A DNA stretch of 64,000 bases. It comes from Fistulifera solaris (Eukaryota). Position numbers and translations under genes: made by a program. Within the stretch, counting starts at the first letter, position 1, and each line of letters begins with the position of its first letter. Below the pieces are notes generated by a model. The model did no database searches and was not told the origin of the DNA. It saw nothing but the letters and a program-made list of their open reading frames with translations. Location of the stretch: contig AP026133.1 of NCBI GenBank assembly GCA_030295235.1, forward strand, positions 62,001-126,000, in the 5' to 3' direction. Shown here piece after piece: positions 26,718 through 61,787 of the stretch.

Positions 26718-26917
26718 GTTGATTCATTGAATAGATTCTTTTGTAAGAGATATACGAGATGCCAACCATTGGTGGCAGGGGGAAATACTTGTAATCACAA
26801 TCGCCTTCCCTTTCCTCAAGATCGTGTCAAAAACACAATTTGGATCTGAAAACGTTTTTTCCTTGCAAACACTTCTGACTTTTGATCCATCCCTGTTGAA
26901 AACTCTTTCTATTTGTC

Positions 26918-27069
26918 ATGGTAAGCAATTGTATTTGCTCTCGTGGTCAATTTTCTTGTTTACCAAGTGCGGGCTTTTCCATCAATACAAAGTACATACA
27001 TTCCTTCTATCCAACGAAAACGGTTATTGCTGGTTGGAATACATCATTACCACGATCTTCTGCGTTGCT

Positions 27070-27101
<32 letters not shown>

Positions 27102-28878
27102 ACACCCGTAATCACACCAAACACCTCTTTTCACATAACACACAGTCGGACGAAGATAGCAACGAACCCAAAAAACCCATTATTACATCACGCAAGGATC
27201 GTCCTACTGGATCGATTCACTTTGGTGATGATGATTTCAACGCTGACGAAGAACCGGCCGATGCCACTTGGGGTGAAGTCTTTCAAGCTTGCTGCGTACG
27301 CAGTCCTACAGAATGGGGCTACGCGTTTGGAGGATTCCTCGTCGTCTGCTTCTTCCTATACTTCTTCCTGTTTGGATTGGAGCTCATGGGAACAAGTGCC
27401 AAAGTCATGACGGGTTGCACTGCCGGTGCCCTCTTTGGAGATGAAACCAACCCCGTGGCTGGTCTCATGGTGGGTGTCTTGTCGACCGTCTTGTTGCAGT
27501 CGTCTTCGACCACTACTTCCATCATTGTGTCCCTCGTGGGTTCGGCCATTTCGGTTCGTCAAGCGATTTACATGGTCATGGGAGCCAACATTGGTACTAC
27601 CGTCACCAACACGTTGGTTTCTTTGGGTCAATTGGGAGATGCGGATCAGTTGGAACGTGCCTTTGCCGGTGCCACTGTACACGATATGTTCAACTACATG
27701 ACCGTGTGCATCCTTTTCCCCCTCGAGATTGCTACCGGGTACCTTCGTCACTTGACGGGTGCCATGGTCAAGAACGCCACCACCTCGGACGGCGAAACTT
27801 GGGAAGGACCCGTCAAGAAGTTTGTCTCGCCGCTGGGAGAGCGCATCATCAAGTCCAACAGCAAGTTAATTACGGCCGTTGCCAAGGGAACCGGTTCTTG
27901 TGACGACGGCGATGGCTTTTATCCCGTTCTTTGTGAGCCAGGAGAACCCACCGCTTCCAAGTGCAAGCAAGTTGGTCTCATTTCGTGCAACAGCGACAAG
28001 AATACATGCCCGTCGTTTTTCCAACCCAACGCAACCGCCAAAGATGATAAGGTTTCGGGTGGAGTGGTCTTTTCATTTCCATTGTCATTCTCTTTACGTG
28101 CTTGTTGGCGTTGGTGAATGTCTTGCAGCGCATGTTGCTCGGCTTGTCGACTCGTGTCGTGCACAAAGCGACCAATGTCAATGGGTACGTGGCGATTGCC
28201 GTTGGTTGCGGTTTGACCATCTTGGTCCAGTCTTCTTCGGTAGTAACTTCCGCTTTGACCCCTCTCGTGGGAATTGGTGCGATTCACATTAACCAGATGT
28301 ACCCCTTGACCTTGGGTTCCAACATTGGCACTACCGTCACGGCGTTGTTGGCTTCCATGGTCACGGAAGGAACCGAATCGTTGCAAGTTGCATTGTGCCA
28401 CTTGTTCTTCAACATTACCGGTATTGCCATTTTTTACCCGATCCCCTTTATGCGCGCGATCCCCATTCACGCCGCCCGTCAGCTCGGAAAAGCCACCCGT
28501 CAGTGGCGTGGATTCCCGTTCTTGTACATTGGTGTCATGTTTGTCCTTCTCCCCGCTATTTGCTTGGGTATCTCTTTCCTCTTTGCGGACGGCAGCAAGG
28601 GTCTCACGGTGCTCGGGTCGCTCTTGGTGGTGGTCCTCGTTTTGTCCTTTGGCTACCTTGCCTACTGGTGGCGTTTTAAAGACGGCAAGCAGACTCTCAA
28701 TGCTTGCTTTGAGCGTCGCGAACGTGCCCGCCTCACCATGCAAGATCTCCCGGATGACATGGAGTTTCTCAAGGCCAAGGTGATGGCCCTGATGGAACAC
28801 ACGGGCCTTCCGGATGATGAAGAACAGGGCGCGACGGACAAGATCAAGGACGAGGATGAAGAAGAAGTGGCGGCTTAA
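26918..28878 (+). CDS. Na+/phosphate cotransporter, SLC34 family, copy 2; ATG-only first exon, intron 26921-27145, one frameshift near 28070
   Basis: M|SDEDSNEPKKPII with the same QSSS, GANIGTT, GATVHD and GSNIGTT motifs as copy 1. Frame break lies in a T-run (GGVVF/F). Confidence 0.93.
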
Positions 28879-36333: not shown

Positions 36334-38303
36334 GCTATTTGTGCTTTGAGCAGATTTTTGTGCTGTATCATCGATTAATATGGAAATTGATTTGTTGAGA
36401 AAGGTTATTAACATCGTGTGCACGCCGCGTGTTTTGCGGGCTCGATGGCTTTGGACTTCGGGACGTTTGGTTCTCGATGCTTCCAAAATGCGGACACGCG
36501 AGGTGCGAGGTCCGCAGGAAGTCAAAAGATACGATGACGTTGAACGAGGCTGGCTTTCTCGCAGCACAATAAGCATGAGAGATATCACGATAATAGTGGT
36601 TAAACTACTTTGATGATATATTTAGCTTGTGTTACCACCTAAAAATGAAATTTTGATTGACGTTGTGTCTAAGTAACGATACCGTGCCAATTGTACTGAG
36701 AAATGATTAGGTACATGAACTACTTTTGCATTTAGTGTCTTTGGTCGTGGAACGGAATACAAAACCAGAAATCGTGCAAGCGGCAAACCACACGGATCAG
36801 ATGTCCGGTTCACGTACACTATCATTCTAGAGAGCAGTCTTTAAAGTCACACTGCGTCTTCTGCGGCTTCGAGGCGTCGCGAGGGAGATACGTAGGAGGC
36901 GCCTGCCTTATTCTTTTAAATGAAGGAAACATGACATGCTAAGATCTTTTCAAAATATGACGCTTCATGCCGAGCTTTTGGATTGACAGAGACAGTTACA
37001 TCACTTCATTGTTGGAAAAAGCACTTGTGCGTCCGAGTTCTCGTCGTGATGGATAAAGTCTCGTTAGGAGAGTATAAGGCGCTGTCTGGTCTATCTTATT
37101 TAAGCTCCCGCTTCCGCCTTACGTTTAGCTGAACAAAGCAGCAAAGTCTCTGAGATATTTTTGTTCCGGCTGTGCAATCGAAGAATATAGTTATTGTAAG
37201 CATGAAGCTCGATACCTCCTACCAGTGCAAGTGCTATGTGTCTTAGCTCATGCCAATGAATAGGTGCGTACATCAATGACTGACAAGCAGCATCCATCTG
37301 CGGTTTCTCCGAACCCCCATGATCCACGGCAACACTAATTAGGATTGCTTCTCTTGGGCGTCACTGCATTGCATTCGGACTGGAATGTTCCCCATGACTC
37401 GTGCCGCTAGGCGGATGCCATACAATGCTTGTAGAACAATTCCAGTCCCCATGTGTTGCACCATTCAATTCGAAACAATACACCACGAGTGATGATTCAT
37501 TCCGATGATATTTCACGTCACGACAGAGGGCATTTCCTTTTCATAAGGCATGATACAAGAGTTTCACCATATTCTCTTGTTGATACACAATGTCGAGGAC
37601 GTCATCATTTGTTGAAGTAAAATTTAGGTCCTGCGGGGATGTACGTTTTTTTTGCTTTTTTGTTCGAGATTTCCTGTAACGATTCTGTTTTCTTCGTGTT
37701 CATTGTAGAGTCCGGAGTCTTCAAAGGAACAACATGGTTGCAAGCCATCAAAGCTTCGCACAGAATAGAAACCATGAAACAAAAGGATATACAAAGAAAA
37801 CCGTGATGTCATGATTTTTTCACGTAACGTGGGGTAGAGTCAATAATGACTGCATTGGGAAATGTCTCCTTCTTCACTTCATGCAAGCAGCCATCAGAAC
37901 TCAATTTGATACCAGGTGACGAGTAAGAGAGAATAACCATCGACTTCCTTTCGATCAAATGAAAGCTTTGAATAAGACAAAATAGGAAGGAGTAAACAAG
38001 ATGGTAAGAACAGAAGAATTAGGCTTCTGCATGCGATGCGATGGCAGTGCACACGAGAAACGCAAAGGAAAAGATAAATACAGGAATTAACTAGTCATCA
38101 GTCATCTTTATTGTGTACCTCTCCGACCTTGTTTGTGAAGCCTTCTGCAGCGTAAGGAGTCGGACCGTCATTAATGTTTATAATGGGAAAAATCATCGTT
38201 GTGAACCGAACTAAAGCGAGCGTTCTTGCTCCAATTCATTGCTTTGATTTGTATGTGACGTTTCTATTAGAGGTGATGAAAGATCTGATTCAGCTAGACG
38301 CTC

Positions 38304-41300
38304 TCAAACATCAGTTACTGTTTCTGCTGTTTCAGAAATCCCGTCATTTGATCCTTTGGCTATCCATTCTGTTTGCTTCGAATCGCCTGCAGCTGTTGTA
38401 TCCAAGACTTGTCTTTTTCCAGAATCGACAAAAGCAAAGCGCCAAGCACGATGAGTCGCGGCGGGCGGATGATCGGCGGCACACGTCAATACAGGGAATC
38501 CACAGAGTGAAATGGTAGCAACCGCACTCACACCAAAAGTCTCTTGTCCATCCCCATCATCATCATCACCTTCGTCAGCATCACGTAATTTTATTGATAT
38601 CTTTGCCACAGCTCCTAAAAGTTCCAACAGTTCTTGTTGCGGGTGTTGGATCTGATCCTCATTTCCAATGACCGTTTAGAGAATAGGATGCAACACTTCT
38701 TGCTCGCGTGCACTCCGGCCGTACATCCTCCATCAACAAAGATGGCTCAACACGGCTTCGACTATATCTGCCAAGGCCTTGGGAGGCTGCGTGCTCCAAA
38801 TACCGCGATTCTCCCGGTTTACGCTGGCCCAATATGCTTCAATACGACCCGGTAAGGTGGCATCGTGATGACGCAGGTAACGGTGCCATCCCATCCGGCA
38901 GGCCAGAAACGCCAAAGTCGAATTGCAAACAAACTGTTTTTCAAAATTCACCATGTCGCCCGACCGACATACCATCCTCCTTCGTGTCACTGTATTGATC
39001 AAAGATCCACAACCGGGCCGTAGCGACAAGACAGCATCACCGATCCACTCCAAGCGTTCGTAGGCCGGCGACATGCACGTCCAAACATGTGGGATGTGTG
39101 AAGGCTTCGAGCAATAAAGCAGGGCGTCACGAAGCGCAATATAACCAGTCTCTTGCGATATAGTCTGTTCCAACAATGCAGAAGCAAATCGCGTTCCATT
39201 CATGACTTCGGTTATGCGATATGGAAGGATCCCATTCTAACGTCAAACCCAGTTCATCGGCCACGCCGGACGGGCGGCTTGATAACCACCACAACGCACA
39301 TAAACCCGAGTATAGCTTCTATCACATCGGCTAAAATCTTGCCACGGGGTGCCTTGATATTACTTTTTGTGCTAGAACTTTCACTGAATACCAACTTCAT
39401 GACGTGCACGGTGTCCATCGACCACGCCAAGTTCGGAGGTGAACAGAAATCGATCGATGGACAGCATAATGCAAGCTTCTTCCAAACGATCGTTGCAACA
39501 CAATGCGGATCGAATCACATCCAAATCTCCTTCGTGAAAGCCACGCATCCACGGTCGGAGGTGTGGAGATCGGAGACAGACATCCGTCAATACCAATTGT
39601 AAGACTGCATCACCCAACCATTCCCAGCGTTCATAATTTTCTTCAGCCCACACAACTAGCGGCTGTCAAAAGAGTGGCAATCTCAGTGTCTGTACTGTGC
39701 TCTTCAAGGCATTGGGCCAAAAGGGAAGATGCTTGCGACAATGCTCAACAAATGCCCGTGTAATTTGTATTCGCTCCAGGAAGTACAAGCATTGCGGTAA
39801 CAACAACGCCTCAAGATACAAAGCAGCGTCTGCCAGGGGGAGCTTCGCTGAATATACATTTCGGAAGCATTCGTCCTTTCAAAAAAGGGCAGATGGGAAC
39901 CTTAGATTGATTGTCATTTGAGTGGGTCGCTCCCTCACATGAACCGCGATTTTTATGCAAGATAGTGATAGGAAGTTGCCAACAGTATTGACAGAAGAAA
40001 GAATCATCTATGGCATCAACGTTTTTATCCGTCTGAAATCCACCACCATACACCAAAAAGACGCCTCATCGGATCATGATCCGGAATCCAGAGTCGAGGA
40101 CGGACGAGAGGTTGCACATTTGACACTTGCTGAGCCGCTGCTTTCAACTCAGCAGCATCACGCTTGCTTTCATTAATGATACTTTGCATGTACATCCACT
40201 CCAAGTTGTGCTGAGCATCTACGCAGCCCACCACATAGGGAGGAGTTATCATTGATTGGTTCAATTCAGCGGAGTTCAAAGACGCCATCCTTGGTCCGTT
40301 TCTTCCAGCGAGCATTAAAAAGAACTACAAAAATTCACGGAGAAGCCTGATCTGGCTTTTGGTACACTGAATCGGGCACCGCTTTTCATGGAACATGTCA
40401 ATCGACCAAACTGAGGATGGTCATGTTGCATGACGGACATCTCTTTAGGTTCCAGTAGCGGTTCGAAACATACTAAGGCCAAGGATCTACCGAAATTGCC
40501 AAGCGCTTTGCGCGTTTCATCTAGTCTCTCTCCTTCCATGCAAAGTATACCGATGTAGCACGTCGTTTTATCAGTCAAAGACGGCAGGGAAAACATTCTC
40601 GGTCTAGTTGCCACATTGTTCTTGTTCGGTCTTGGCTTGACGAAGGATAGGATCTTCTGGCGGAGTTCAGCTCTTGAAAACGGCAACAATCGATGAGACA
40701 ATAACCCATTCTTGTGCAAGCGAACACATGCGATCAATGCCAGCATCTTTTGCTTATCTTTTTTCGGCATGGCAAGAGTCGATTCGGGAAGCGAGATGGA
40801 CCGCAAACCATTTCCAGCTCCACAGTATGCCGGCAGTGTGAGCTGGTTGCTCTGTTCGTCGAAGAAAGGCAAATATCGACTGCAAGGCGCGTTTTGATGA
40901 TCGTGTCACCCAGTCAATGGGCTGGCTCAGGGCAAAGCGATACAATAAAGACTTGGCCGAATTCAAAAAGACAGCACCGAAGTTCTGCCGTGTAGCTCCC
41001 ATTCGCGCAACACAAGTAGCTCTTCTGTGGTGAGCTCTTTGTTTTGCGTTACATCGAGAAAAGTCAAACCAGACAAACCGGCCGTGATATATCTCCTCTT
41101 GCTTCCTACTTTCATTTGCCACAGCATTCTGGATGCGCTTCTCCAGGCGGCTGGCTTGTTCTGTATTCAAACCAGTGACGTGATCATTTTCAAAGAAATA
41201 AAACTTGGCTCTTTTGTCGAGCTCGCCCTTTCATTTGAATGTAGCTCTTGATTGTCGTCAATGCATCAAACGCAATGACAAACGAACAGGCTTGTAAATC

Positions 41301-42746
41301 AACACCTTCTTCCACCACGGAAGTGGCCACCAGTACATTGAACGTTCCTTTCGCAAACCATCCAGCGTTTCTCGAATATTGTTTTTCTTCCTCTTTCATC
41401 AACTGCGTCTGTTGATTCATCTCTTCCTCGCGAAAGCTTGGCACCGGCACAAAACATTTGGCTTCCCGTACTTTTTCGAATCATACTGCAACATCGAATC
41501 AGGAGTTGATGCGGCATTCGTCCCTCCCAGCTCATGATGTCGTCTTCGGCATCCGCAAATTGACCATTTAATTTCTCATGATGGGCTTGCTGCAAGCCGT
41601 TCTTCTTTGTTGCTCATTCCAATGTTGAAAATACTGATCCAAAGCACAAGCCGTGATCCGACGCTGCACAAAGACGACCCCCACGGCATGCTTCGTGCGC
41701 GACAATTCTTGTTCCAGCAACTGTTTGAGGCATTGCAATTTGTGACTGATGCAATGAATTTCACGACATGCCGCCACAAGCTCCAAATACTGTTGTGCCG
41801 CTTGAAATTGGTCTCGTGTTTCGTGCTGATATTGATTCCGTTTCAATTGCAGTGATCGACAATACCATATCACCGGCAAAGGCCCCAAATCCACTTCTAA
41901 TTGTTCCAATTGTTTGAATTCTTTGAGACGCTCGGATGCAAATCGTCCGAGGGAATCCGGCAAAGGACTTTTCGCAACACCACTCGGCATCCGGTAAGAG
42001 ATGCAATGTTCGAACATTCCTGTTCATGAAAGCGACTGTCTTGATCATTCACCGGGGGTGCGACAATCTTGGCATCCATTTGGACTTCCAGTTGCCGTCA
42101 AGAATTGTGTCAATTGTTCTTCAGTATGATTGACTTTGACAGCAATCAAAGGCGAGGCTGTCAATCCCAACACGCGTGGTCTCTGATGTTGTGGTAACGT
42201 ATGATAATAATCGCGCAAAATCATCGCTGCACGGAGAATTCCCAATACAATGATGACATTCATCCAAGATCAATAAACTGACTTGCCCAAGAGAATACTG
42301 ATCGGGATAATGTCGCAACAAATCCAAATATCGCCCGTGAGTCGCCACCAAGATTTTACTTGAGGTTTCTTCCGTGACGCGATGCAACGTGATATACACG
42401 CCAATTGCACCTGGTCCAAATGCACACTCAAGACGGCATGTTGTTGCACCGCCAAGGCGACACTGGGCACCAAAAAGACCATGGATCGTTGTTGATTGAC
42501 ATAGTGTTGCAATAACAAAAGTGCAATCCACGTCTTCCCGGTACCGGTGCCTAAATGAACAATGATGTTTTCGTGTTTGGCACGTTCAAACAAACTGCGT
42601 TGATAGGAACGTGGATCGTGTGTGGTTTTCAAGAGAGAATTCATCCACTTGTCGTGTTCCGTGTCATCATCCAGTGTCGTGTGTTTGGTTTTCTTATTGA
42701 CGGACAGCACAGGATCGGCCGAACGATGTTTGATTTTCTCATTCAT
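38304..42746 (-). CDS. DCR: Dicer-like endoribonuclease: DExD/H helicase - HelicaseC - DUF283 - RNase IIIa - RNase IIIb - probable dsRBD; multiple frameshifts, ends approximate
   Basis: Helicase: [65 protein letters not shown] and [24 protein letters not shown]...[13 protein letters not shown]283: AKSLLYRF...LTLP...[25 protein letters not shown]. RNase IIIa: [13 protein letters not shown]...EGDL...[12 protein letters not shown]. RNase IIIb: [13 protein letters not shown]...[12 protein letters not shown]. Confidence 0.92.
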
Positions 42747-43542
42747 GATCTTTAACACTTTGTGCAAATTGTCTTCGACACTTTTTTGAATCTGAGAAAC
42801 ATCTTCCCGGCCGTCACTGAGGTTTCAAAGAGGAATTGTCGAACATCCTCATGTAACGAAAAATGTGGATGATGATTCATGATGCGTTTGTTTTGATGCT
42901 TTATTGACAATGAATGAATCACCGTGTGTACTTCAGTCAAGTAGGCTTACAGCAAAAGAGGAGAGTTGAAGAGGAGATGAAAGTCACTTGCTTCAGCTAG
43001 TAAATGATTCTTGACACAAGAGGAGAGAGAAATCACTCAAAAGATATGCACTCGAAGGGTACGCTCATAACGAAGTGTGATCTATTTCTTCCGCTTCATT
43101 GAAAATTTATCCTATTTTCTTGCCCCGAAGCAATACAAGTATCACCTTTCTCCTTTGCATACCGGTACCATTATTATCCTCATTCAAAAAAAAAAGTTGG
43201 TTGTTTATTGTCCTCGCGTTTTCGTGTTTTATTTATTTCTATTATTTTATACTGGTACAGCGAACGTTGTTGATTGGAGGATGAATATTCGCAGTGGTGT
43301 GGTACTTGTATCTAGGAGAGTTTTGATTGGTGGATGAAATTTTCAAGTGGTATGGTTTTGAATGTACGAAGGTCCACAACCGGGACACGATTGAAACAAA
43401 ACACGCGACAATATTCATAAAAGACGCGACATAGCAACCTTTGCAGCAACAACAAATCTTCCATTTCTTTGTCAATTTGCAAGATCCATCCATACGATAA
43501 TAATAATCATTTGATTCAACTACCAATAAACTCTTTACGAAC

Positions 43543-46500
43543 ATGCATCGCGGTGGTAGAGGTGGACGCGAAAATCGCGGCGGCAGAGGGTACGTCTTGC
43601 TTCGCGAGAGTTTGTGAGCCTCGTTGCGAAACGAAATGGAATGCGTACAAAGTATTGTCTCTCAATCATTTAATCTTTCCTCATAAACAGCGGACAAGGT
43701 CGTGGACGTGGTGGTGATAGTCATCGAGGCGGAGAAGCTCGAGGAAGAGGTGGGGAAGCTCGAGGTGGAGGTAGAGATTTCCGAGGAGGAGGACGCGAAG
43801 GGCGAGGCCGGGGACCGGATTTCTCTCGGTTGACATCCTGCCGTACAAATATCCTATCAGGTACGAATGTGGAGGAGCAAATAATATATTACATTGCCGT
43901 GCTTTTAGTCAACGGAGAGTTCTCACTTTTACTCTCGCTTTTACTACAGCACAAGTCTCTCCCAACTTTTCCGTTTGGATGTTCAGTCTCGAGTGTCGTG
44001 ATAAGAACAACAAATTGATTGATGCACGAACTCGACGATATCAACTCTTTCAGACAGGCTTTTGGGATCAGTTTATGGCCCGGCAGCAGCTGTTGCCGCA
44101 GCAAATCGAAGATTTGAAGCGAGTGGGTACGTAGAAAGAAAGCGAATCAATTGTGATCGAACAAACCTCTTACAGTTCCTTTTATGCGCTAGTCTTTTTT
44201 CAAAATTCGACATTTATGTCGGGTCGTGACATTCCTGGTTTGTCGTCACCTGATCAGTTGCCGCTCACGCTGTGTGATGGATCCACCACGAATGGAGATG
44301 TCATGCGAATTGTGCGTATGCAAAAATTGTCGGCCCCACAAGAATTATTGGTAGCGTGGAATCCGGCCGAAGAACATGTCGTGTTGGCGGATTTGCGATG
44401 TGCGGATTGTACGCCAAGGCTTTCGGGATGAGCAGTCGCTTTTGCAGCACTGGTACGTTTTTAAATTGTAGAATGTGCGCATCCGAATAGCAAGCTAGAC
44501 TCACTTTATGCTGCTACTATTTTTTAAGTCGACAAAGGGACATCAACCGGTCTATTTCGACGAGACTTCTGTGACTAAACCGGCATCAGCAGCAGAATTT
44601 GAAATGTTTGCCAATGTGGCGTTGGAAGGGGCTTTACGTGAACGAATGGCACGCTGGGGACGTGAATTTATCGACCCGCAGTCGTTTACCGAGCCGAAGG
44701 ATCGGAATGGTCAGTCGTTGGGTGTCAAGATTTTTAAAGCCTACCGCTGCAACTTCAACTTGATGCGACAGTCGAACACGAAAAGTGCTTTGGCTCGTCT
44801 TACTTTAACTATTGATCTACGTGCCAAAGTAATTCGTACTGCGACGTTGCTGGATGCCCTTTACAAAGGCAATTACTCGCCATCCAAGGGTAACTTGTCC
44901 AAAGCCGATATGGATAATGCTAAGCGCACCTGGGTGGGTGAGACCGTCATTACCACATATGACAAGAAGTGCTACCCAGTTGTTGATTTGCTCTTTGACC
45001 ATAGTCCTGACTCGTTAATGATTCCGGGGACAAACACATCTCATACGCATTATTTCGCTACTCGCAAGAAAATGAAGCTGAAATATCCCAGTGCGAAGCC
45101 CATGGTTGTTGTTCAAGGTCGAAACAAAAGTAACATTTTCCTGCCTGCAGAGCTTGTGACTGGGAATGAATTGGATCCCGAGGTGAAAGAGAAACTTCCC
45201 ATGATTGCTGGTTTCAATCCCGAGAAAGAACTAAGGCTATTGATGTTGTCCGCGACTATCTGATTCCTGGAGCACAGACAACTCGTGGTGCCAGTGGTCT
45301 TTTGCCCGCATTGGGTATTGCGTTGCAGTCGCCAATTAATGCTACTTGCAAAGTCATGCCCGTCCCTTCCGATTATTGCTGCTGGAGTTTCAGTTCCGAA
45401 AGAGAAAGCAGACAATTGGGCACCAGTTTTGAGCAAAGCAAAATTCAATGTCAACACGTCTCAAGCAACAACTTTGAATGTTGTTTTGGTGTGCAGCGCA
45501 TTTCTGATCGAAGAGGCGGTGGGTACAAGGACACGTACGATCGAATTAGCGACCTTGTAAACGGGCACAATGCAAAATTTCGATTGGGCAACAAGCCTCA
45601 CGAAGTGGTGAAAGTGGGTAAGTCATTACTTTATGTATGAAGTACGATACGGTGAATTTTTCATTTAGCAATCTAACGTAACACGCTCCCAGACATGAAC
45701 AAAAGTCATCATGGAGCTGTGCAAAAGCACTTTTCCGGAAAAGTTCCTGCCAATGTGTTCATCCTTGACTTTACAAAGCCCCGTGGCTCGATGGACCCTG
45801 ATTATCCTGTCGTGAAAATGATTTTAGCTCAAAACGGTTACATATCTCAGGTAAGATATGACACATCATTTTTCGATTCCTCATCCCGATTCTCACGACG
45901 CTTCTGTGCCTCCCTTGCCTTGTTAGTTTTTAAATTTCAATACCTATCGTCACGATGAACCGCGTGACATGAAACGTTCAAACATCATCTTGCAAGGAGT
46001 TGCTCGACAAATTCTAGAAAAGGTTGGCGTTCGTATCTGGTGGGTAGCAATTCCCAAAGAGCTCCCTCTGCCATCGGTGCTTGTGGGTGTAGACGTGTTC
46101 CACGCCCCCCGTGTTTTCAATCCTATCACCAAGGAAAAGGTCGGAAAAGCGTCTGTGGCGGCAATCGTCGTTCAGATTGTTCGAAAAGAAAATGATATTT
46201 TGACGTACGAAGACCTTCGTTCGAAAAGCAGGTCAGGAATATCAACTTAATGAGTGTTTGGAGCAAACAGTGAAAGCTGCACTGAAATTACTTCACGAGA
46301 AACCTAAATCATGCGTGAATTTGGCTGACGGAATCGGAGAGGGTGCACTCGCCACGGACGCAATAGGACGAAATAAAAGGAATTGAAAAGGGCTTGGTGC
46401 AGATGCAGTCGTAGGAACCAAGAAGATTGAAGATTCGGTCCCTCTTGCTTACATCGTCTGCCAGAAACGAATCGCAACCAAATTTTTTTGCCATGGAGGG

Positions 46501-46836
46501 ACAGCAGCCATTCGGAGCACCTAGTGGTACGTTGGTGGAAGGCTTCCAAGGTTTGGCGTCATCACACCTTCTATATCAATGGAAGAGCTCCGCCGTTTAG
46601 CACCCCCAAGCCGGTCCGGCTTCATTACAGTTCACCGTGATGCTGGTCTAGCTCGAGTTGATATTCCATCCCTGACTTGGTCGTCGTGTCACAACTACGC
46701 CAAATTGGGCAGGTCCCGTCAAGCTTCCTGCACCAACACAGTACGCACAAGTTAGCCGAGCTGGCGGGAAATATGCCGGACCATGGTGGCTCGATTAGCG
46801 CCCGAAAAATACGCCAATACTCTCTATTTCCTCTAG
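43543..46836 (+). CDS. AGO: Argonaute/PIWI protein: RGG-rich N-terminus, N/L1, PAZ, MID, PIWI; about 6 GT-AG introns, several frameshifts
   Basis: MHRGGRGGRENRGGRG|GQGRGRGG... with introns 43590-43690 and 43861-43949. PAZ: VITTYDKKCYPVVDLLFDHSP...HYF...KLKYP...IFLPAELV. PIWI: QILEKVG...LVGVDVFH, DGIGEG, YIVCQKRIATKFF, PSGTLV and NWAGPVKLPAPTQYA(HK)LAELAG. Ends NTLYFL-stop (TAG 46834-46836). Confidence 0.93.
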
Positions 46837-50706: not shown

Positions 50707-53700
50707 TCATTACCGTCCAGGGTTAAGGTTACAGTCACTATTCCTGAAGCCCTCCTCGAATCCCTGTCATCCTTCCTGGTCAAGTCGACGACGCTGAATA
50801 CTTTTTGCACTCAATTTCTCATCAGATCAACCGATCATCCGCTTTTCAGCATGAACAACCATGATTCAAACGCTGCATCGCAGCCGAATCAGCGATCCGT
50901 GAGATTTGGCGAAACATCAATTCATCTTGTCGATCCTGAACAACTGACACATTCGAGTACTAAACACCGGCAAGTAGAAGGTACCAGAACTCGGAACACT
51001 AGGACACAAAGTACTAATTCGACAATTCACTTAGCACAGAAGGATAACGCGTCGCGCTGCTGCAAATGTACTCCGAAGGCCCATTGCAAAACAAATAGAT
51101 GCCGGTGCAAACAAAACGGCATTTACTGTACCAATTGCAAATGCTCTGACTGCCATAACAAAGATCGTCTTCAAAACTCCTACAACGTCAACGGAAGAGA
51201 ACTCATAGTGGAGTTCTGCCAACCAATTTATTGGACCTTCGCGTGAAATTGATCATGGCACGAACCCCAACCCTACCAATCAAAACACGGGAAACGAGAC
51301 GATCCAAAATAACAGGAATCTCGAAGTCATCAACTCTCAACCTCAACCAGAACAAAACCAAGAAACAGGACATACTGACACTATTCAAGTTGAAGTTTAT
51401 GACGGTTCCCCTGTCGATTTTCGAACTGATGACAGTGACGATGATGATGAAGAAGAAATGTACGAACGTCACACTAACTCCACATTCAACCAACTTTCTA
51501 CATCGGAACCAGATGCTGACCTCCGGGATTTGTTGACACGGAAGCACATCATATTCTTCGCTAAATTTTTGGTGATCATATCCATGATAATGATGGAACA
51601 CATCTCACAGGTGGACTGCCTGAAGAAGCTGACAAACAATGGCAAAGCTGGTACAAATCTCTAATTGCAGTACCGCCAAGAGCTTACACTCTCCGCAGAA
51701 ATGGCACTACAAAGCGCTTTCTTTCCATTCTGATTGAAGAACTACAGAACGTCAGAAAGCACCGAACAGCAAATTTTGAGCGAAGTTCTTGTTTTCATCA
51801 TGGTCATTCTTGAATCCACTCCACACATCAAACGGCAAAAAGATATTAACCGAAGATTGAATGATCGAATGGATCTATGGTTATCGGGCAATCATTTGAC
51901 TCTGTGTCATGATACAATTCTTGAAAAAGGAAAACGGGAAAAGCCATCTACAGCCCCCCTTGACCCTAGACGAACGGGCACGACGATTCGACGCCATGTT
52001 GAAATCCGGAAGAATTAAAAAAGCAATGCAAATACTCACTTCAACCGAGACTGACAGAAATTCCGAGCGCACAGATAGCTCACGGAATTCGAATGCGGAA
52101 TGATCTCACTTAATAACGACAATCAACCAACTCAACACTCTTTGATGAGATGATCAATTGACAAACACCAGCACTGATATCGCAAACACTCTTTGATTGC
52201 AATGATCAGCAAGGACAACCACACAGTGCGCCTGTAACGTACTTACTCACTGTCTGCCTGTCTGAACTCAATGGATGTAGATCGATTCACAAGGTATATC
52301 AGACCTTGGGAATTTCACCACAAAAGAAAAAGACTCAGTAAACTCGGTAACAATTGATTGATTTCTAATTCATTTTTATTTTTATAAGACCTATTCTAAT
52401 TGAAAATGATTGCACACCTTTCTCCAATCTTCATGAACTTGTGCTGAGGTGGCGAAGTTGGCAAGTACTACATTGCCGTAGAAAATGAACATAGCTCTGT
52501 AGGTTTCCGTAGGTTGGCTACGTTACGTAGGAAACGTACTGCAGGTCTACGTAGCAGTCAGTCGTGGCAAGAGAAGAAACATGTCCACGTCTGCGAAAAT
52601 GTCGACGTTTGCACTCTCATTGGTATCCAAACCTTGTAACTGCAACTTCAAATAACTCCAAATGGTATCCAAGTGACTCTATCTTCAAATAGACAGTCGA
52701 CGTCTAAATAGCGATACCGGTGTACCATCATTGTGTAGTATAAGTAGTACGCTGCACAAATACAATGGAAATTCAGTCACTAACATGACTCGATCTTGCT
52801 AAGAAAATTGTCAGAGACAACAGGAGTCCTTGATCCTGAAGCTATTGACCCGAAAACCAATCGTCAAGTGATAGAGGTCCTACGCGATAAACATCCGGAC
52901 TTACATCCCAGATCTCAACACAACCCAGGGTTGTCTTGCTTTTGAACAGTATGATTACCTTCCTGATGCAGTTCCTTTACGAAGTTTCTGCCAAAGCAAT
53001 TGCAACCACAGCAATAAAACTAAAAGGAAGCGGGGGACCAAGTGGAACAGATGCGGTCACTTTAAAGAATTGGCTCCTAGGTCATGGGAAAGTTTCTTTT
53101 CGGCTTGAGATGCGAACTAGCTCACTAGACAGAATTGCTTGCAAACAACAGCCCTCCCTATGCTGCAATTCGGGCCTTACTAAAGCATAAGACTTATCGG
53201 TTTGGACAAAAGCCCTGGTGTCCGTCCAATTGCAATTGGAGAAATTCTCCGTTGGCTAATGGCCAAAACGGTGGCTATTCTCAAGGGAGACTTCGGCGGC
53301 AGAAGAATGCGGTAACCTCAACCTCTGTACGGGACTTTCTTCAGGCACCAAAGGATCCATTCACGCAATGCTAAAGTTCCTAGCGTCACCCCACCAAGAA
53401 GCACTTCTCCAAAAGTCCATTCTCCTGGAAATGGGATTCACCGATGAAGAGGCCCAAGATCTTGAAATGAACCTAGAAGAGGTCCAAAAAGAAATCACTG
53501 AAAGACTACTGGATTATGAAGATGATCTTAACCGAAAAGAAGGCTACGATGAAAATGACCCCGAAGCAATGCTCCTAATTGACGCAAGAAAACGCATTTA
53601 ACGAACTTAGCAGATTTTAAATGCCATGGACTGTGCGACATCTCTGGCCCGCCGGAGCAAGGTTTGTTTTCAATGCTACAGACATGCATCTACTCTATTT

Positions 53701-55526
53701 GTAATGCATAGAGAGTTTGACTTTTGTGAAGAGATTCAAAGCAGGGAAGCAGTAGCTCAAGGCGATCCCCTAAGCATGATTCTTTATGGCTTAACTTTAA
53801 CTCCTATCACAGAGAAAATCCGTGATAATGTCAAAGACATAGTCCAGCCCTTCTATGCAGACGATGTTGCTCTGGCAGGAAAATCTTCTGACATCTCAAA
53901 AGCAATGGAAATTCTAATGCAGTATGGACCTGCCCGGGGCTACTTTCCTGAACCAAGCAAAAGTGTCTGTCAACAAAATGACGAAGAAAAGTGCAGTGAG
54001 ACCTGTCTAAATACAAATTCAAATATGTCCGAGCGGACACAGATATCTCGGTGGATATATTGGATCGGCAGCCGCACGAGATGAATACGTCAAAGAAAAG
54101 ATCAAAAATTGGACACGAACAGTCAATCTGCTTGCTGAAGTTGCCAAGAAATACCCTCAGTCCGCTTACTCCGGCTTTCGTCACTCTCTCCAAATGGAAT
54201 GGCAATACATTCAACGGGTCATCCCACGCATTGAACCACTATTCAAGCCTTTAGAATCTGCAATCCAAGTCAATTTTCTTCCCGCGCTCCTTGGACAAAA
54301 AGAGCCAGTAACCGGTGAATTGAGAAAAAACCTTGCTTTAGGAACCAAAGCCGCCGGTATCGGAATCTGGAACCCAATGGAGACATGCGGCCATAATTTT
54401 TCAACATCTGAGAAAGTCACAAAGCTCATTTCAGGCAGCTTGCTCGAGAATCTTAATCTAAATGTGCGACAACATCAAGAACGGGCAAAAGCTGAAAGAG
54501 CTGCGGCCTCTGCAAGTCGTCATGCTGGTGAACTCCAAACTCTGAAAGATATTTGTGCAACAAAAGGGGATGATGAACAAGGCAAACAAGAAATGCGACG
54601 CCTCTTGCAAGCAAAATCGACAGGAATTTGGCTATCCGTTAGACCCAAAACTCTCACAGACACAGATTTGTCAAAAGATGAATTCAGAGACAGTCTTCGC
54701 ATTCGCGCAGGTCTACCTATCCAAGCACTTCCTCAGAAATGTGATGGATGCAATAAATCTTTTCGGTAGAAAATGCTCAAACATGCAAACACGGCGGTCT
54801 TGTCATCCTTCGACATGATGATGTTAAAAACGAGTTCATGTCTCTCTGTGCGCAGGCGTATGGCCCGAAAGCAGTACGCAACGAACCGACGATTCACACA
54901 TACAGCACCGACAATCAGAATGCACAAAAGAACAAGAACTACGAGGTGACATTTCTACTTACGGATTTTGGAGCGATTGCAAAACAACTATCTTTGACGT
55001 CCGCGTTACTGATACAGATGCCCCTTCATACAAGAATCGTGATCCAATGAATGTACTCGCTTCTCAAGAACTGGAGAAACGAAGACTCTATGGACAGCCT
55101 TGCATGGACCGTCGTCGCGATTTCACGCCTCTTGTCTTTTCCGTTGATGGGCTTATGGGTAAACAAGCCATCGCAGCCTCTCGCCAGCTTGCAAGAAAGC
55201 TGCAAAAGAAATGGAAGAGACCTTACTCTGAAATTTGTGGCTTCATCAGATCTTGTCTGAGCCTCTCGTTGGTTCGATTGGTAAGCATGTTATTGCGAAA
55301 TCCGAGAGATGGCGCGCCACAGCGCAATCCACCGCACTGGGAATCCGGTGCAGGTTTGTCACTCTACTACTAACTGTGGTACAGTGATTCAGGAAACGGA
55401 GCTTCTGAGAACCGGAAGAAAAATGCAAATGAACGTCAAATTTGCATTCTGACTTGAGGAAATTTGGAATTAGGAATAAAATTCAGTCGAATGTCAAGAT
55501 TAGATTCTGACGATAAATATCAGTAT
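50707..55526 (+). mobile_element. CRE-clade non-LTR retrotransposon (CXC Cys-rich N-terminus, RT, CCHC knuckle, restriction-like endonuclease); near full length, frameshifted, interrupted by a solo LTR
   Basis: [105 protein letters not shown]...CDGC...CKHGG...RHD, RGDI...FDVRVTD and EKRRLY...FTPLVFSVDG. Flanked by identical TTAGTTTTTCCTCT at 50693-50706 and 55527-55540 (candidate TSD). Confidence 0.9.
52052..52813. mobile_element. Solo LTR (762 bp) inserted into the CRE ORF
   Basis: Begins TGACA and ends TGTCA (TG...CA); flanked by 5-bp TSD GAGAC at 52047-52051 and 52814-52818. Removing it restores the in-frame ...ILTSTET-TGVLDPE...VLRDKHP. Confidence 0.85.
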
Positions 55527-57270: not shown

Positions 57271-57487
57271 GGGAATGCTGTTTTTTTTTCATTCCCAGAT
57301 AATCTGGGAGTGCTATGTTATCCCGTTCCCAGTAAATCTCGGACTGCTGTGTTTTCACAATCCCAGAAAATCTGTGAGTGCTGTGTTTTCACGTTCCCAG
57401 ATAATCTAGAAGTGCTGTGATTTCCCAATCCCAGTAAATCTGGGAGTGATGTTTTTTTTCCGTTCCCAGTTAACCTCGAACTGTTTC
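57271..57487. repeat. Minisatellite, about 6 copies of a 34-bp unit containing the palindrome TCCCAGAT-A-ATCTGGGA
   Basis: TCCCAG recurs at 57293, 57327, 57361, 57395, 57429 and 57464; consensus TCCCAGATAATCTGGGAGTGCTGTGTTTTCMCRW. Confidence 0.9.
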
Positions 57488-59092: not shown

Positions 59093-61231
59093 TCAATCTT
59101 CCTGAGTGACTTCAGTATACTCACTCTCGGTTTCTCCGATGTATGCGTCTGTGTATTCCTCCGAGTTACTGAACTCAAGCTCGATATAGACTGGCTTGTA
59201 AAGCTCAAGCATACGAGGTTTTGCTCGGAGGAGTCCGTAGATTGTGTCAAGGCTGGCGAGATTTTTCCTTATACGTTTCTCGGTATATGTCACATTATCA
59301 TTTTGCAGGTGAATTTCCCGACATCTCAACGAAGCAGGCTCAAGTGCTACGACAGCGGCAACCATAAATGGAAACATTCCTTCGACAGCCAAAACAGGGT
59401 TTACCCACTCAGAATCGACCGACTCGTTATCATTGTACAGGTCAACACTCAGTAATTTTGCGTTCTCGTCTTTGACGAACCTTAACGAGCGCGGCACGGA
59501 GAGCGCTCCTGGATACGAGCGCACCAAAGCATGGATTCCTCGCTGATAGGGAGTCTGTGATTCGATAGCCAGTTGTAAGGGAGTTTCTCCATAGATATTC
59601 TTCATCCGAGAAACCTTTGGGTTCAGACGCAGTAGGCATTGAATAGCTTCTTGCTTACGCTGATTTATAAATTCCGTCATCTCCTCTTCGTTTTGTTCGC
59701 CAATCCACATACACACTTCGTGCAAAGGCGTATTGCCCGAGTCATCAACGGCTTGACTAAGGTGGTCAGGATAGTTTTGTGCGGCAATTTTCAGTATTGC
59801 TACTGGGCATCCATTTAATCCAGATACCGAATGGAGAACATTGGTTCTTGACGTACCAGAGCAACTTCGAAGCAAATTGTTAACCCATGTCCACGCCCAC
59901 CACGAGTCCGGAGATTCCTTTTGCTCGATATCTTCTTGAATTTTTTCTCTGTTAGATCGATATAGCATCTCGATCGGCCCGCGTACTTTATCGTTATAGC
60001 ATCGTGTGTTCGCCAAACGAGGATGGACGTCGAGTAGTGTCTTGAGCACAATAGTACTATCTGTCTTTGGCTCCTTTTTGAACAACCGCGAACATGTTAA
60101 AATGTGCACGTCCAAGGCCGATAAGCCGTCGTCTGTGAAAACATATGCACTGTGCGGGGCATGCTCTAAAAGGATTCGAGCAATGATTTTTGCATTTTGC
60201 ATATTGTACTCTCGTTCATAGATAGAACAAGCGTAGCACAAAGGTGTATATGATTTCAAATGACACCTAATAATACCAGCTTCTGGACAAGCTGCAGCTA
60301 GTTCTTCAATGAGCTCTAAGGGTGCCGGAGGCGTATCTTCCTCGTATAGATTCCGAAACGTCGGATTGGTTCGACTGATCACTGCTAGATGTAGCGCGGT
60401 CGTACCATCCGTCGGATCGACACATTTTGCATCGCGAGGTTGCTTTTTGCACTGTCGACGGACAGCTCTCCAGTTCGCTTGGCGTGCATAGAGGTACAGG
60501 GGTGTCCAAGACGGATCTTGCGCTATCTCCTCTAAGTTCTTCACCTTTAATTGTGAGGTTGTCTTTCGCGATCGATTTGAGTGTGAACTGGAAGTCAGAA
60601 TGAATAGTTGCTGTTGCACATCCTTTGACCTTGAAATTTGATCGGGAAAGGTGGCAGTCAATGATTTACTTCGCTCGCCATTCGTACGGGAGATACCTCT
60701 TTGCCTTGACGACAAGCTCCCTGAACTCAAAGCCCGTTCCATTTCTTGGTTAGATGTCTCTACTGTGAGATTTGATCGGGCACTATGAGTCCGTCGAATG
60801 TCTCGACGTTTCGTTTCATTATTTCCTTTCTTGTCAATTGTTGATTGGGGTAGGACCGGATGAGTGAAGATTGCATTCGCAATATCCTGATCGGAGACAT
60901 CTGCAGTCTTTCTGACTGATTGAGAACTGTGAGTACGCCGAATATCTTTTCTTTTCGGTTCAGTGTCTCCTTTACTTTCCTTGGTCGATTTTGGAATTGC
61001 AGGATCGATGAAAGTGGAATTCGCCGAATCGATCTGATTTCTTTCGAGACGGTGCGATTTGCTTCGAGTCGGTAGCTTTCCGGAACTTCGAACTCGAGGC
61101 ATGTCTAGTGCAGACGATTGCGGAAACGTTTCGTTGGGCGTACCGACTCTCGCGCTTTGTGTGCGAGCGGGCGTCTTTCTCTTTGTCGTCAGGCTCCCCG
61201 AACTCGAGTTCTTTTGTATTTCATGTTTCAT
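59093..61231 (-). CDS. Ankyrin-repeat-like protein with a long Ser/Arg-rich N-terminus
   Basis: Intact 712-aa ORF with DGTTALHLAV, YTPLCYAC, DGLSALDVH, SGNTPLHEVC and YGETPLQLAI, and C-terminal GMFPFMVAA...LDTIYGLLRAKP typical of diatom ankyrin-like proteins. Confidence 0.85.
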   Translation of the reverse strand: MKHEIQKNSSSGSLTTKRKTPARTQSARVGTPNETFPQSSALDMPRVRSSGKLPTRSKSHRLERNQIDSANSTFIDPAIPKSTKESKGDTEPKRKDIRRTHSSQSVRKTADVSDQDIANAIFTHPVLPQSTIDKKGNNETKRRDIRRTHSARSNLTVETSNQEMERALSSGSLSSRQRGISRTNGERSKSLTATFPDQISRSKDVQQQLFILTSSSHSNRSRKTTSQLKVKNLEEIAQDPSWTPLYLYARQANWRAVRRQCKKQPRDAKCVDPTDGTTALHLAVISRTNPTFRNLYEEDTPPAPLELIEELAAACPEAGIIRCHLKSYTPLCYACSIYEREYNMQNAKIIARILLEHAPHSAYVFTDDGLSALDVHILTCSRLFKKEPKTDSTIVLKTLLDVHPRLANTRCYNDKVRGPIEMLYRSNREKIQEDIEQKESPDSWWAWTWVNNLLRSCSGTSRTNVLHSVSGLNGCPVAILKIAAQNYPDHLSQAVDDSGNTPLHEVCMWIGEQNEEEMTEFINQRKQEAIQCLLRLNPKVSRMKNIYGETPLQLAIESQTPYQRGIHALVRSYPGALSVPRSLRFVKDENAKLLSVDLYNDNESVDSEWVNPVLAVEGMFPFMVAAVVALEPASLRCREIHLQNDNVTYTEKRIRKNLASLDTIYGLLRAKPRMLELYKPVYIELEFSNSEEYTDAYIGETESEYTEVTQED

Positions 61232-61787
61232 CGCTTATGTTCCCTTAGTCGTCGCCGGCAGCAAGTCAATCGTTGTAGTGTTTTGAATTATTGATAAACG
61301 AGAAGGGTCGCGGCCCTTTTCACCACAATTCTTTTTCCTTCATCGTCTCGAGTTGCGAGGCGCAAGGACAATAAAAGGTCAAAGAAAAAGGATGCAGTGA
61401 CTTCGCGGCTTTGCGGAGATACTGGTACTCTCGAAATCGGTTGATGCGTGACTCAGTTGTTATGACCAACAATGACCGATGACCGACGATCGATGACCTA
61501 AGGCTTGCACACAATACATACATTCAGTACACAATGATTTGCTGTGGCAAATAAAGTGCTTAATGGTCCTTTCAAATTTTTGAATTGTTGGCAAGACGCA
61601 AGACGCGAAGGAAAAAGAAAATGGCATGTACAAGTGCTTGTAGTTGTAGCTCGAGCGAGTGTCAGCTGGCGGCGGACGAGGAGGTGAGCACTCAACGACA
61701 AAGGTTGAAATAAAAGTTGGAAACAATAGCATCTTTGGTTTGTGTTTCCGCCTTCCTAACTCTGCTCGAAGAAGAAAATCAGATAGA

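Follow-up and report, generated by a model that had tools for sequence, protein, structure and literature searches.

Within the 64,000-nt stretch of Fistulifera solaris DNA analysed here (the window), a Dicer gene on the minus strand and a PAZ-PIWI Argonaute gene on the plus strand are true divergent neighbours (Table 1), as the initial annotation had proposed. We consider it probable (roughly 0.7) that the locus holds the core RNA-interference genes of this allodiploid diatom in their subgenome-A copy, an ordinary Dicer and an ordinary Argonaute in a lineage-specific gene order, and that the frameshifts which interrupt both genes are mostly assembly errors.

The gene pair and its public counterparts

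Judged by sequence match, the pair is that of the F. solaris proteins GAX18424.1 (Dicer; P0050) and GAX18425.1 (‘aubergine’; P0001). Their accession numbers follow one another on a single 268,757-bp contig, and the two records share the locus, the start codons and the neighbour relation with the window, where 1441/1460 aligned residues of the Dicer (98.7%) and 924/934 of the Argonaute (98.9%) are identical to them. The difference lies in 48 frameshifts and one stop, present in the window DNA and missing from the public proteins, and the window therefore represents another, less accurate assembly of this locus. A homeologous pair from the second subgenome, GAX24458.1/GAX24459.1, shows identities of 86.7% for Dicer and 94.7% for Argonaute, again with consecutive accessions on one contig (149,689 bp); these accession numbers, rather than DNA, suggest that the two genes are neighbours there too, a relation that carries no orientation. 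The Dicer–Argonaute neighbour pair in F. solaris is already known from the public annotation, and the novelty once suggested for the arrangement does not stand, while the available text of the literature, including PMC2724275, PMC4247016, PMC13149256 and PMC7335047, yielded no mention of such adjacency in diatoms. The proposal of a dedicated second pathway found no backing either: non-exhaustive homologue searches returned no further F. solaris Dicer or Argonaute, and in a similarly non-exhaustive look-up none of ten clusters of short or split Dicer-like proteins names F. solaris.

Table 1. Features of the Dicer–Argonaute locus in window coordinates
Feature	Position	Strand	Basis and remarks
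Dicer CDS as GAX18424.1 (P0050, 1461 aa)	38360..42746	-	No introns; frameshift-aware alignment
RNase IIIb core (ERLEWIGD ... ADIVEA)	38748..39059	-	PF00636, E 2e-11
RNase IIIa core (ERWEWLGD ... ADVIEA)	39408..39632	-	PF00636, E 4e-10
Dicer dimerisation (DUF283), weak match	40672..40845	-	PF03368, 21.7 bits, cut-off 23.7 (ORF piece)
Helicase_C	41220..41372	-	PF00271, E 1.3e-12, ORF piece window:41193-41480:-
DExD/H helicase core 1, GTGKT and DECH motifs	42150..42620	-	Pfam DEAD/ResIII, two ORF pieces in different frames
Divergent intergenic spacer	42747..43542		AT-rich; A-run near 43187; 662 bp if Dicer start is 42880
Argonaute/PIWI CDS as GAX18425.1 (P0001, 936 aa)	43543..46836	+	Frameshift- and intron-aware alignment; seven exons
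PAZ	44907..45188	+	PF02170, E 1.8e-11, ORF piece window:44499-45260:+
PIWI, approximate coordinates	45802..46775	+	PF02171, E 1.2e-35, P0001 residues 618-916
Cluster of 48 frameshifting indels, 1-2 nt	38438..46806		Frameshift-aware alignments

On its predicted domain content the Dicer is of the canonical long type, with a RIG-I-like helicase, a weak DUF283 and RNase IIIa and IIIb. Pfam identifies an N-terminal DExD/H helicase with Helicase_C and two tandem RNase III domains, both of which carry the acidic motifs E-x-x-E-x-x-G-D and D-x-x-E in the ORF translations. The coordinates of helicase core 1 are approximate because of frameshifts; DEAD/ResIII was also matched on residues 44-199 of P0050. 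On that protein PF03368 scored 19.6 bits, again under the cut-off, and PAZ and dsRBD were undetected by Pfam at E <= 1e-3 on P0050, P0053 and P0045. The best relatives of solved structure were Arabidopsis DCL1, DCL4 and DCL3 and human Dicer (top E 1.3e-65), with DCL1 and RIG-I helicases among the matches.

For the Argonaute, no single ORF piece from the window was significant for PIWI in Pfam because of the frameshifts, and the full Piwi domain emerged once these pieces were read against P0001, which carries PAZ (PF02170) and PIWI (PF02171) in one protein. Residues D690, E739, D769 and H908 of P0001 align with the GxDVxH, QE, RDG and YAHKLA motifs of solved Piwi, columns which we take to be the Asp-Glu-Asp-His slicer tetrad; the first three residues are invariant or nearly so across 14 diatom-type Argonautes. 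The N-terminus is RGG-rich, and the product as a whole is predicted to be a slicer-type PAZ-PIWI protein. Six introns of 70-97 nt interrupt the gene (~43594-43690, 43861-43949, 44123-44192, 44457-44528, 45614-45692 and 45851-45926).

The start codons first assigned to the two genes, 42746 (-) and 43543 (+), coincide with the starts of GAX18424.1 and GAX18425.1. Relatives of the Dicer suggest an alternative start at 42880, an in-phase Met at which the alignments of three close relatives (P0045, P0046 and P0053) begin, and a C-terminus reaching 38318; P0045 is identical at 1379/1512 positions over the span 42880 to 38318, and the alignment of a further relative, P0051, begins at 42918. Because there are two candidate Dicer starts, the spacer measures either 662 bp (42881-43542) or 796 bp (42747-43542), and with either the start codons of the divergent genes are less than 1 kb apart. 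The earlier statement that no gene lies between them was borne out by the spacer checks, which found no Pfam match on its two ORFs, no Rfam family and no tRNA.

Reading-frame breaks in the window copy

Both genes had been called complete, which does not hold in the window, where neither forms an open frame. Relative to GAX18424.1 the Dicer contains 35 shifts of 1-2 nt and an in-frame stop (38676), and the Argonaute has 13 frameshifts away from introns, 9 of these in 46209-46806; no stop-to-stop ORF on the coding strands at the locus exceeds 254 aa. Every one of the 48 shifts is of 1-2 nt, longer indels are absent and codon-sized gaps number one at most. Per kb of coding sequence, 4-14 shifts fall in the Dicer body and at the 3' end of the Argonaute gene, compared with ~1.6 in the region of the shared 5' ends (42250-45250). 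By reading, only ~3-5 of the 19 residue mismatches in the Dicer stand clear of a shift, and indels therefore exceed substitutions several-fold. These breaks are local to the Dicer–Argonaute locus, because long ORFs in the rest of the window are intact (507, 604, 684, 713 and 643+ aa). Together with a paralogous Na/Pi transporter, which has a single shift in 1.8 kb, the intact ORFs rule out a uniform assembly error. The gene beside the homeolog's Dicer (P0052) has a window match of 42-67% identity over ~200 residues and is too divergent to bound the error-dense stretch.

From these error statistics and a guess at the assembly involved, the most likely source of the frameshifts and the premature stop is consensus error in a long-read (nanopore-type) assembly, concentrated at this locus, and the Dicer and Argonaute genes themselves are probably intact. 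An alternative is that the window copy is a truly decaying pseudogene pair, the RNAi genes having been lost from one subgenome or strain, since the breaks are confined to the Dicer and Argonaute with adjacent ORFs intact and loss of one homeolog is possible after allopolyploidy. We regard this as very unlikely: both genes are intact on the public contig, the window copy retains 98.7-98.9% residue identity to them with nearly all mismatches adjoining a shift, and no indel is longer than 2 nt. Natural pseudogene decay does not yield indels several-fold above substitutions, and the indel excess found here is the opposite of such decay and therefore counts for an artefact.

A homopolymer cause of the indels was rejected, as the longest runs close to shifts have a mean length of 2.9-3.2, compared with 2.7-2.8 in the background. 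Shifts lie at a median distance of 2 nt from a CpG versus 5 nt for coding positions (Mann-Whitney p = 2e-4), an association that persisted after matching for GC content (0.69 vs 0.50, p = 0.0024) and was modest when GC content and GpC were included (logistic likelihood-ratio p = 0.035). The consensus errors perhaps arose at methylated CpGs. According to the available text of the preprint, the chromosome-scale assembly of F. solaris was built with Canu and Nanopolish alone, using MinION R9.4 reads (bioRxiv 10.1101/2021.11.10.468027), and methylation-unaware polishing is described, in the part of the source at hand, as leaving errors on native DNA (PMC6045860). A more specific reading, which we hold as tentative and somewhat doubtful, is that the frameshifts, instead of being random assembly noise, record dense CpG methylation across the Dicer and Argonaute bodies, as read by a methylation-unaware nanopore consensus. 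It is suggested by the shifts adjoining CpG, sparing the spacer and the 5' ends, and being absent from neighbouring genes.

Linkage in other diatoms and origin of the pair

A divergent Dicer upstream of the Argonaute occurred at none of 58 environmental diatom Argonaute loci, of which 9 (7 distinct sequences) have at least 1.8 kb upstream and thus give 0/9. Among loci with at least 2 kb downstream, a Dicer lay nearby in 1/10 and in another arrangement: on contig L020 a PAZ-PIWI Argonaute, 44% identical to that of the window, and a full-length helicase-DUF283-RNase III Dicer are 2.6 kb apart, but unlike the window genes they share a strand, and a HisHF gene on the opposite strand separates them. 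HisHF is the conserved Argonaute neighbour on two further contigs (L049 and L053), with no Dicer after it. No contigs were common to Argonaute and Dicer homologues beyond those of F. solaris among the 44 and 120 proteins listed. While L020 could mean that such linkage arose earlier, or has been selected more often, than assumed, these observations point to an adjacency which is not general in diatoms and is confined to Fistulifera plus one distant contig.

Linked RNAi genes have precedent in some fungi. As the initial annotation proposed, the pair might be a selected, co-regulated silencing cassette in which a bidirectional promoter coordinates the Dicer with the Argonaute. The genes are divergent with nothing detected in the 662-796 bp between them, the pairing is present in both subgenomes (by consecutive accessions) and L020 provides a distant instance of proximity. 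Given about 10,000 genes per subgenome, we roughly estimate chance adjacency of two named genes at ~2/10,000. We nevertheless think this explanation rather unlikely, as the two subgenomes are non-independent observations, a divergent Dicer is missing from all nine informative environmental loci, the Argonautes of L049 and L053 adjoin HisHF instead, and compact diatom genomes commonly have short divergent spacers. The evidence points to an ordinary pair of annotated genes in preference to an old selected module. One supplement of PMC5935921 contained no expression table naming Dicer or Argonaute genes.

The initial annotation had also entertained inheritance, loss or transfer of the genes as a unit, at the edge of a transposon-rich block. 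Of this block, what was recovered is one RVT_1 match at 53611-54081, which is sub-threshold (22.6 bits vs a cut-off of 29.6), and some short repeats. Acquisition or movement of the pair by horizontal transfer or a transposon, at the edge of mobile DNA, could draw on this gene-poor stretch, 7-10 kb downstream, with its weak reverse-transcriptase match and repeats. We consider it extremely unlikely, since that evidence is itself below threshold, terminal repeats and transposase were not found flanking the pair, and a scan of viral contigs with the Argonaute alignment gave no relative. The best relatives of both proteins are proteins of other diatoms (34-54% identity), the nearest named ones among the matches listed being from Seminavis, Pseudo-nitzschia, Amphora and Mayamaea for the Dicer and from Nitzschia, Odontella, Cylindrotheca and Chaetoceros for the Argonaute, which counts for vertical descent of both genes. 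These relationships and the gene orders at the environmental loci speak against a unit that travels together.

Comparison with known silencing systems and proposed role

Plant DCL1, DCL3 and DCL4 and animal Dicer (7eld, 9kby, 7vg2 and 5zak) share with the window Dicer an N-terminal RIG-I-like helicase and tandem RNase IIIa/IIIb, whereas in the latter Pfam finds neither PAZ nor dsRBD, and DUF283 falls under its cut-off. Dicer-like proteins of Phaeodactylum tricornutum and Thalassiosira pseudonana are, in the available text of De Riso et al. 2009 (PMC2724275), short proteins with a dsRBD and two RNase III domains, or with two RNase III domains alone, and the helicase is absent or separately encoded. 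F. solaris differs from these descriptions in uniting helicase and nuclease in one 1461-aa protein. The Argonautes of the two species, as far as that source covers them, are of the same diatom type as that of the window, both sets representing diatom RNAi core genes, and it places diatom Argonautes in their own clade. Among solved structures, PIWI-clade Argonautes (Piwi, Piwi-A, Siwi and MILI) are the best matches of the window protein and align at the DEDH positions; in phmmer comparisons with P0001 they reached E 7e-27 to 1e-20 against 3e-9 for human AGO2, values that are similarity scores and not a tree. Animal piRNA biogenesis is Dicer-independent according to the accessible part of PMC4247016, whereas the Argonaute of the window has a Dicer next door.

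For the core RNAi pair that we favour, both genes would be transcribed divergently from the 0.66-0.8 kb spacer, which would probably give some correlated transcription. By analogy with their families, the two RNase III domains of the Dicer would cut long double-stranded RNA into small duplexes, and these would be loaded into the Argonaute, which would cleave or silence complementary transcripts, transposon transcripts being the most plausible targets. The adjacency would be a lineage-specific gene order kept in both subgenomes by descent, neither a general diatom feature nor a mobile cassette.

Without accurate reads, this copy of the locus should neither be interpreted as pseudogenes nor serve as a basis for gene models. 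Diatom RNAi would gain a handle if the linkage proved to be an old selected module, in the form of one knockout locus, one promoter and a marker for the gain or loss of silencing. The local error cluster with its CpG association offers an inexpensive hint that the RNAi genes may lie in a methylated domain. If the methylation footprint is true, the RNA-silencing genes of one subgenome sit in methylated chromatin beside a repeat-rich stretch, which would point to the silencing pathway feeding back on its own genes, or to silencing specific to one homeolog, in an allopolyploid diatom.

The divergent Dicer and Argonaute genes

From 38.3 to 46.9 kb, the stop-to-stop open reading frames (ORFs) are short and switch frame repeatedly. 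Pfam searches of the minus-strand pieces recovered DEAD/ResIII, Helicase_C, a weak Dicer_dimer and two Ribonuclease_3 matches in the order of a Dicer; on the plus strand, PAZ was found on one piece of 254 aa and no piece was significant for Piwi on its own. The best match of the PAZ piece was ‘aubergine [Fistulifera solaris]’ (GAX18425.1), at 95 %, followed by many diatom-type Argonautes at 44–54 %, and one Dicer piece matched three long Dicers at 67–90 %.

Gene models were derived with a purpose-written aligner of protein to DNA that tolerates frameshifts and GT-AG introns. The window Dicer is intron-free and colinear with its relatives. From 42746 to 38363 it shares 1441 of 1460 aligned residues with the public Dicer GAX18424.1 (1461 aa), with 35 frameshifts required and one in-frame stop passed. 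The Argonaute has six introns of 70–97 nt and 13 frameshifts outside them, and matches GAX18425.1 (936 aa) at 924 of 934 aligned residues from 43543 to 46833. These alignments confirm both start codons and the outer coordinates of the initial annotation and refute its description of the genes as complete, as far as the window DNA is concerned. An alternative Dicer methionine lies 134 nt upstream, at 42880, where the alignments of three close relatives (P0045, P0046 and GAX24458.1) start; that of a further relative, P0051, begins at 42918. The statement that no gene separates the pair was upheld, as Pfam searches of spacer ORFs, Rfam and tRNA searches were all blank. Shared divergent transcription from the spacer is plausible, and nothing so far points to special regulation of the pair.

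GAX18424.1 and GAX18425.1 are consecutive accessions on a single contig of 268,757 bp (cluster look-up), and GAX24458.1 (Dicer) and GAX24459.1 (aubergine) share one of 149,689 bp. Published abstracts describe F. solaris as an allodiploid diatom with two subgenomes, and these are one pair per subgenome (homeolog identity 86.7 % for Dicer, 94.7 % for Argonaute). The arrangement is thus already visible in the public annotation: this is a real, previously annotated neighbour pair of F. solaris, conserved in both subgenomes. No comment on Dicer–Argonaute adjacency in diatoms was found in the literature searched, including passages of PMC2724275, PMC4247016 and PMC13149256, and a term look-up in PMC7335047 gave no matching passage. 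The GAX24458.1 model (1989 aa) is probably a fused gene model; its C-terminal 396–420 aa (residues 1570–1989) are identical to separate ORF calls (P0052 and P0054) and have no counterpart in GAX18424.1. A weak homologue of this part lies just downstream of the window Dicer, at 37217–37775 (-).

Feature coordinates in the window, the public proteins GAX18424.1 (P0050) and GAX18425.1 (P0001), and environmental contigs (L handles)
Feature	Location	Remark
DEAD/ResIII	P0050 residues 44-199	Pfam
Helicase_C	P0050 residues 456-510	Pfam
Dicer_dimer	P0050	sub-threshold Pfam match
Two RNase III domains	P0050	Pfam
PAZ	P0001 residues 345-438	Pfam
Piwi	P0001 residues 618-916	Pfam
Intergenic spacer	42747-43542 (or 42881-43542)	between divergent Dicer and Argonaute
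Dispersed 79-nt repeat	50639, 55409, 57023	three copies
Reverse-transcriptase (RVT_1) match	53611-54081	sub-threshold
34-nt tandem repeat	57284-57457	~5 units
Argonaute-HisHF microsynteny	L020:1710-6646; L049:2-4738; L053:3696-8835; L038:1148-10262	

Protein architecture and linkage in other diatoms

Neither PAZ nor dsRBD was detected by Pfam on GAX18424.1, whose best matches among solved structures are Arabidopsis DCL1 (E 1.3e-65), DCL4, DCL3 and human Dicer. Window translations retain Walker A, DECH and the catalytic motifs of both RNase III domains. This is a long, fused Dicer, in contrast to the short Dicer-like proteins of Phaeodactylum and Thalassiosira described in passages of PMC2724275. 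P0079–P0084 and P0087–P0100, from other diatom-like sources, are helicase-only proteins (~1300 aa), matching the N-terminal 45 % of the window Dicer, and RNase-III-only proteins (about 860–920 aa), matching its C-terminal 58 %, a pattern suggesting that Dicer occurs in both split and fused form among diatoms.

Among solved structures, PIWI-clade proteins are nearest to the Argonaute (E 7e-27 to 1e-20, versus 3e-9 for human AGO2), and D690, E739, D769 and H908 of GAX18425.1 align with slicer positions. The N-terminus is RGG-rich, with a run of RGG/RG repeats encoded at 43543–43720 (+). By the standard pathway, Dicer would cut long double-stranded RNA, Argonaute would take up the products, and the loaded Argonaute would cleave or silence complementary transcripts, with those of transposons the most plausible targets. 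The proposed second pathway found no support in word-limited searches, whose listed best matches included no other F. solaris Dicer or Argonaute.

An alignment of 14 Argonautes retrieved 58 environmental loci, many of only 3–4 kb with little flank. In tblastn searches of all 58 with 13 Dicers, L020 was the sole match at E <= 1e-5 and at E <= 0.05. The head-to-head layout of the initial annotation did not recur: a divergent Dicer was present in none of the nine loci whose sequence extends 1.8 kb or more upstream of Argonaute; three of these (L001, L002 and L016) agree in ORF layout and were counted as one sequence. A full-length Dicer was present in one of the ten loci that extend 2 kb or more downstream, namely L020, where it lies 2.6 kb off on Argonaute's strand with HisHF between them on the opposite strand. 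Dicer–Argonaute proximity thus occurs in two distant lineages, in two different layouts, and is absent from the other environmental loci visible.

Several environmental diatom contigs carry this imidazole-glycerol-phosphate synthase gene (HisHF, GATase + His_biosynth) tail to tail after Argonaute. It is directly downstream in L049 and L053 and nearby in L038, with no Dicer after it in any of the three. Argonaute–HisHF is a conserved microsynteny in environmental contigs and is missing from the window, where no HisHF was found.

Genomic surroundings and mobility

The suggestion that the pair was transferred as a unit found no backing; its nearest relatives are from diatoms, flanking mobile-element features are lacking, and there is no evidence yet of mobility. 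The supposed transposon-rich block reduces to the sub-threshold RVT_1 match, the tandem repeat and some dispersed repeats at 47–58 kb, all in a strongly AT-skewed stretch that lacks clear genes. Elsewhere, pieces of a guanylate/adenylate cyclase catalytic domain are followed immediately downstream, on one and the same strand, by a cyclic-nucleotide phosphodiesterase domain (1676–3388, -); the two may form a single cyclase–phosphodiesterase gene. Two long, intact ankyrin-repeat ORFs, at 59096–61234 (-) and 62072–64000 (+), form a second head-to-head pair.

Origin of the frame breaks

The frame breaks are local: ORFs of 507, 604, 684, 713 and 643+ aa are intact elsewhere in the window, and the second Na/Pi-cotransporter paralog has only one shift in 1.8 kb, at a T4 run near 28074. 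(The two paralogs, at 21373–23184 (+) and 26900–28875 (+), are 3.7 kb apart and share 422 of 595 aligned residues.) Shift density ranges over 4–14 per kb through the Dicer body, reaches 14 per kb towards the 3' end of Argonaute, and is about 1.6 per kb (3 shifts) over 42250–45250, around the shared 5' ends. The denser stretches, 38438–42391 and 45226–46806, are similar to this interval in CpG density.

The 48 shifts comprise 26 of +1, 15 of -1, five of -2 and two of +2. Codon-sized gaps number one at most, and nearly all residue mismatches adjoin a shift, so indels exceed substitutions several-fold. Such an excess is characteristic of consensus error rather than of decaying pseudogenes, and decay of the window copy was judged very unlikely. 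The shifts have no tie to homopolymers. Their median distance to CpG is 2 nt, against 5 nt for coding positions in general (Mann–Whitney p = 2e-4), and 69 % lie within 3 nt of one versus 42 % of coding positions, the strongest signal among 16 dinucleotides tested. Matching for local GC left a difference (0.69 versus 0.50, p = 0.0024), and in a logistic model CpG reached significance (p = 0.035), unlike GpC and GC content.

The frame breaks in the window copy are thus most likely local assembly errors. A chromosome-scale F. solaris assembly is described as using MinION R9.4 reads with only Canu and Nanopolish (bioRxiv 10.1101/2021.11.10.468027), and methylation-aware polishing is noted in a review to lower errors on native DNA (PMC6045860). 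We take the window to derive, in all likelihood, from a nanopore assembly of this kind, and both genes to be probably intact in the organism. The shape of the shift distribution resembles promoter-sparing gene-body methylation. More speculatively, the frameshift cluster may mark a CpG-methylated domain over both gene bodies, and this CpG-linked, promoter-sparing error pattern is the sole feature that merits follow-up.
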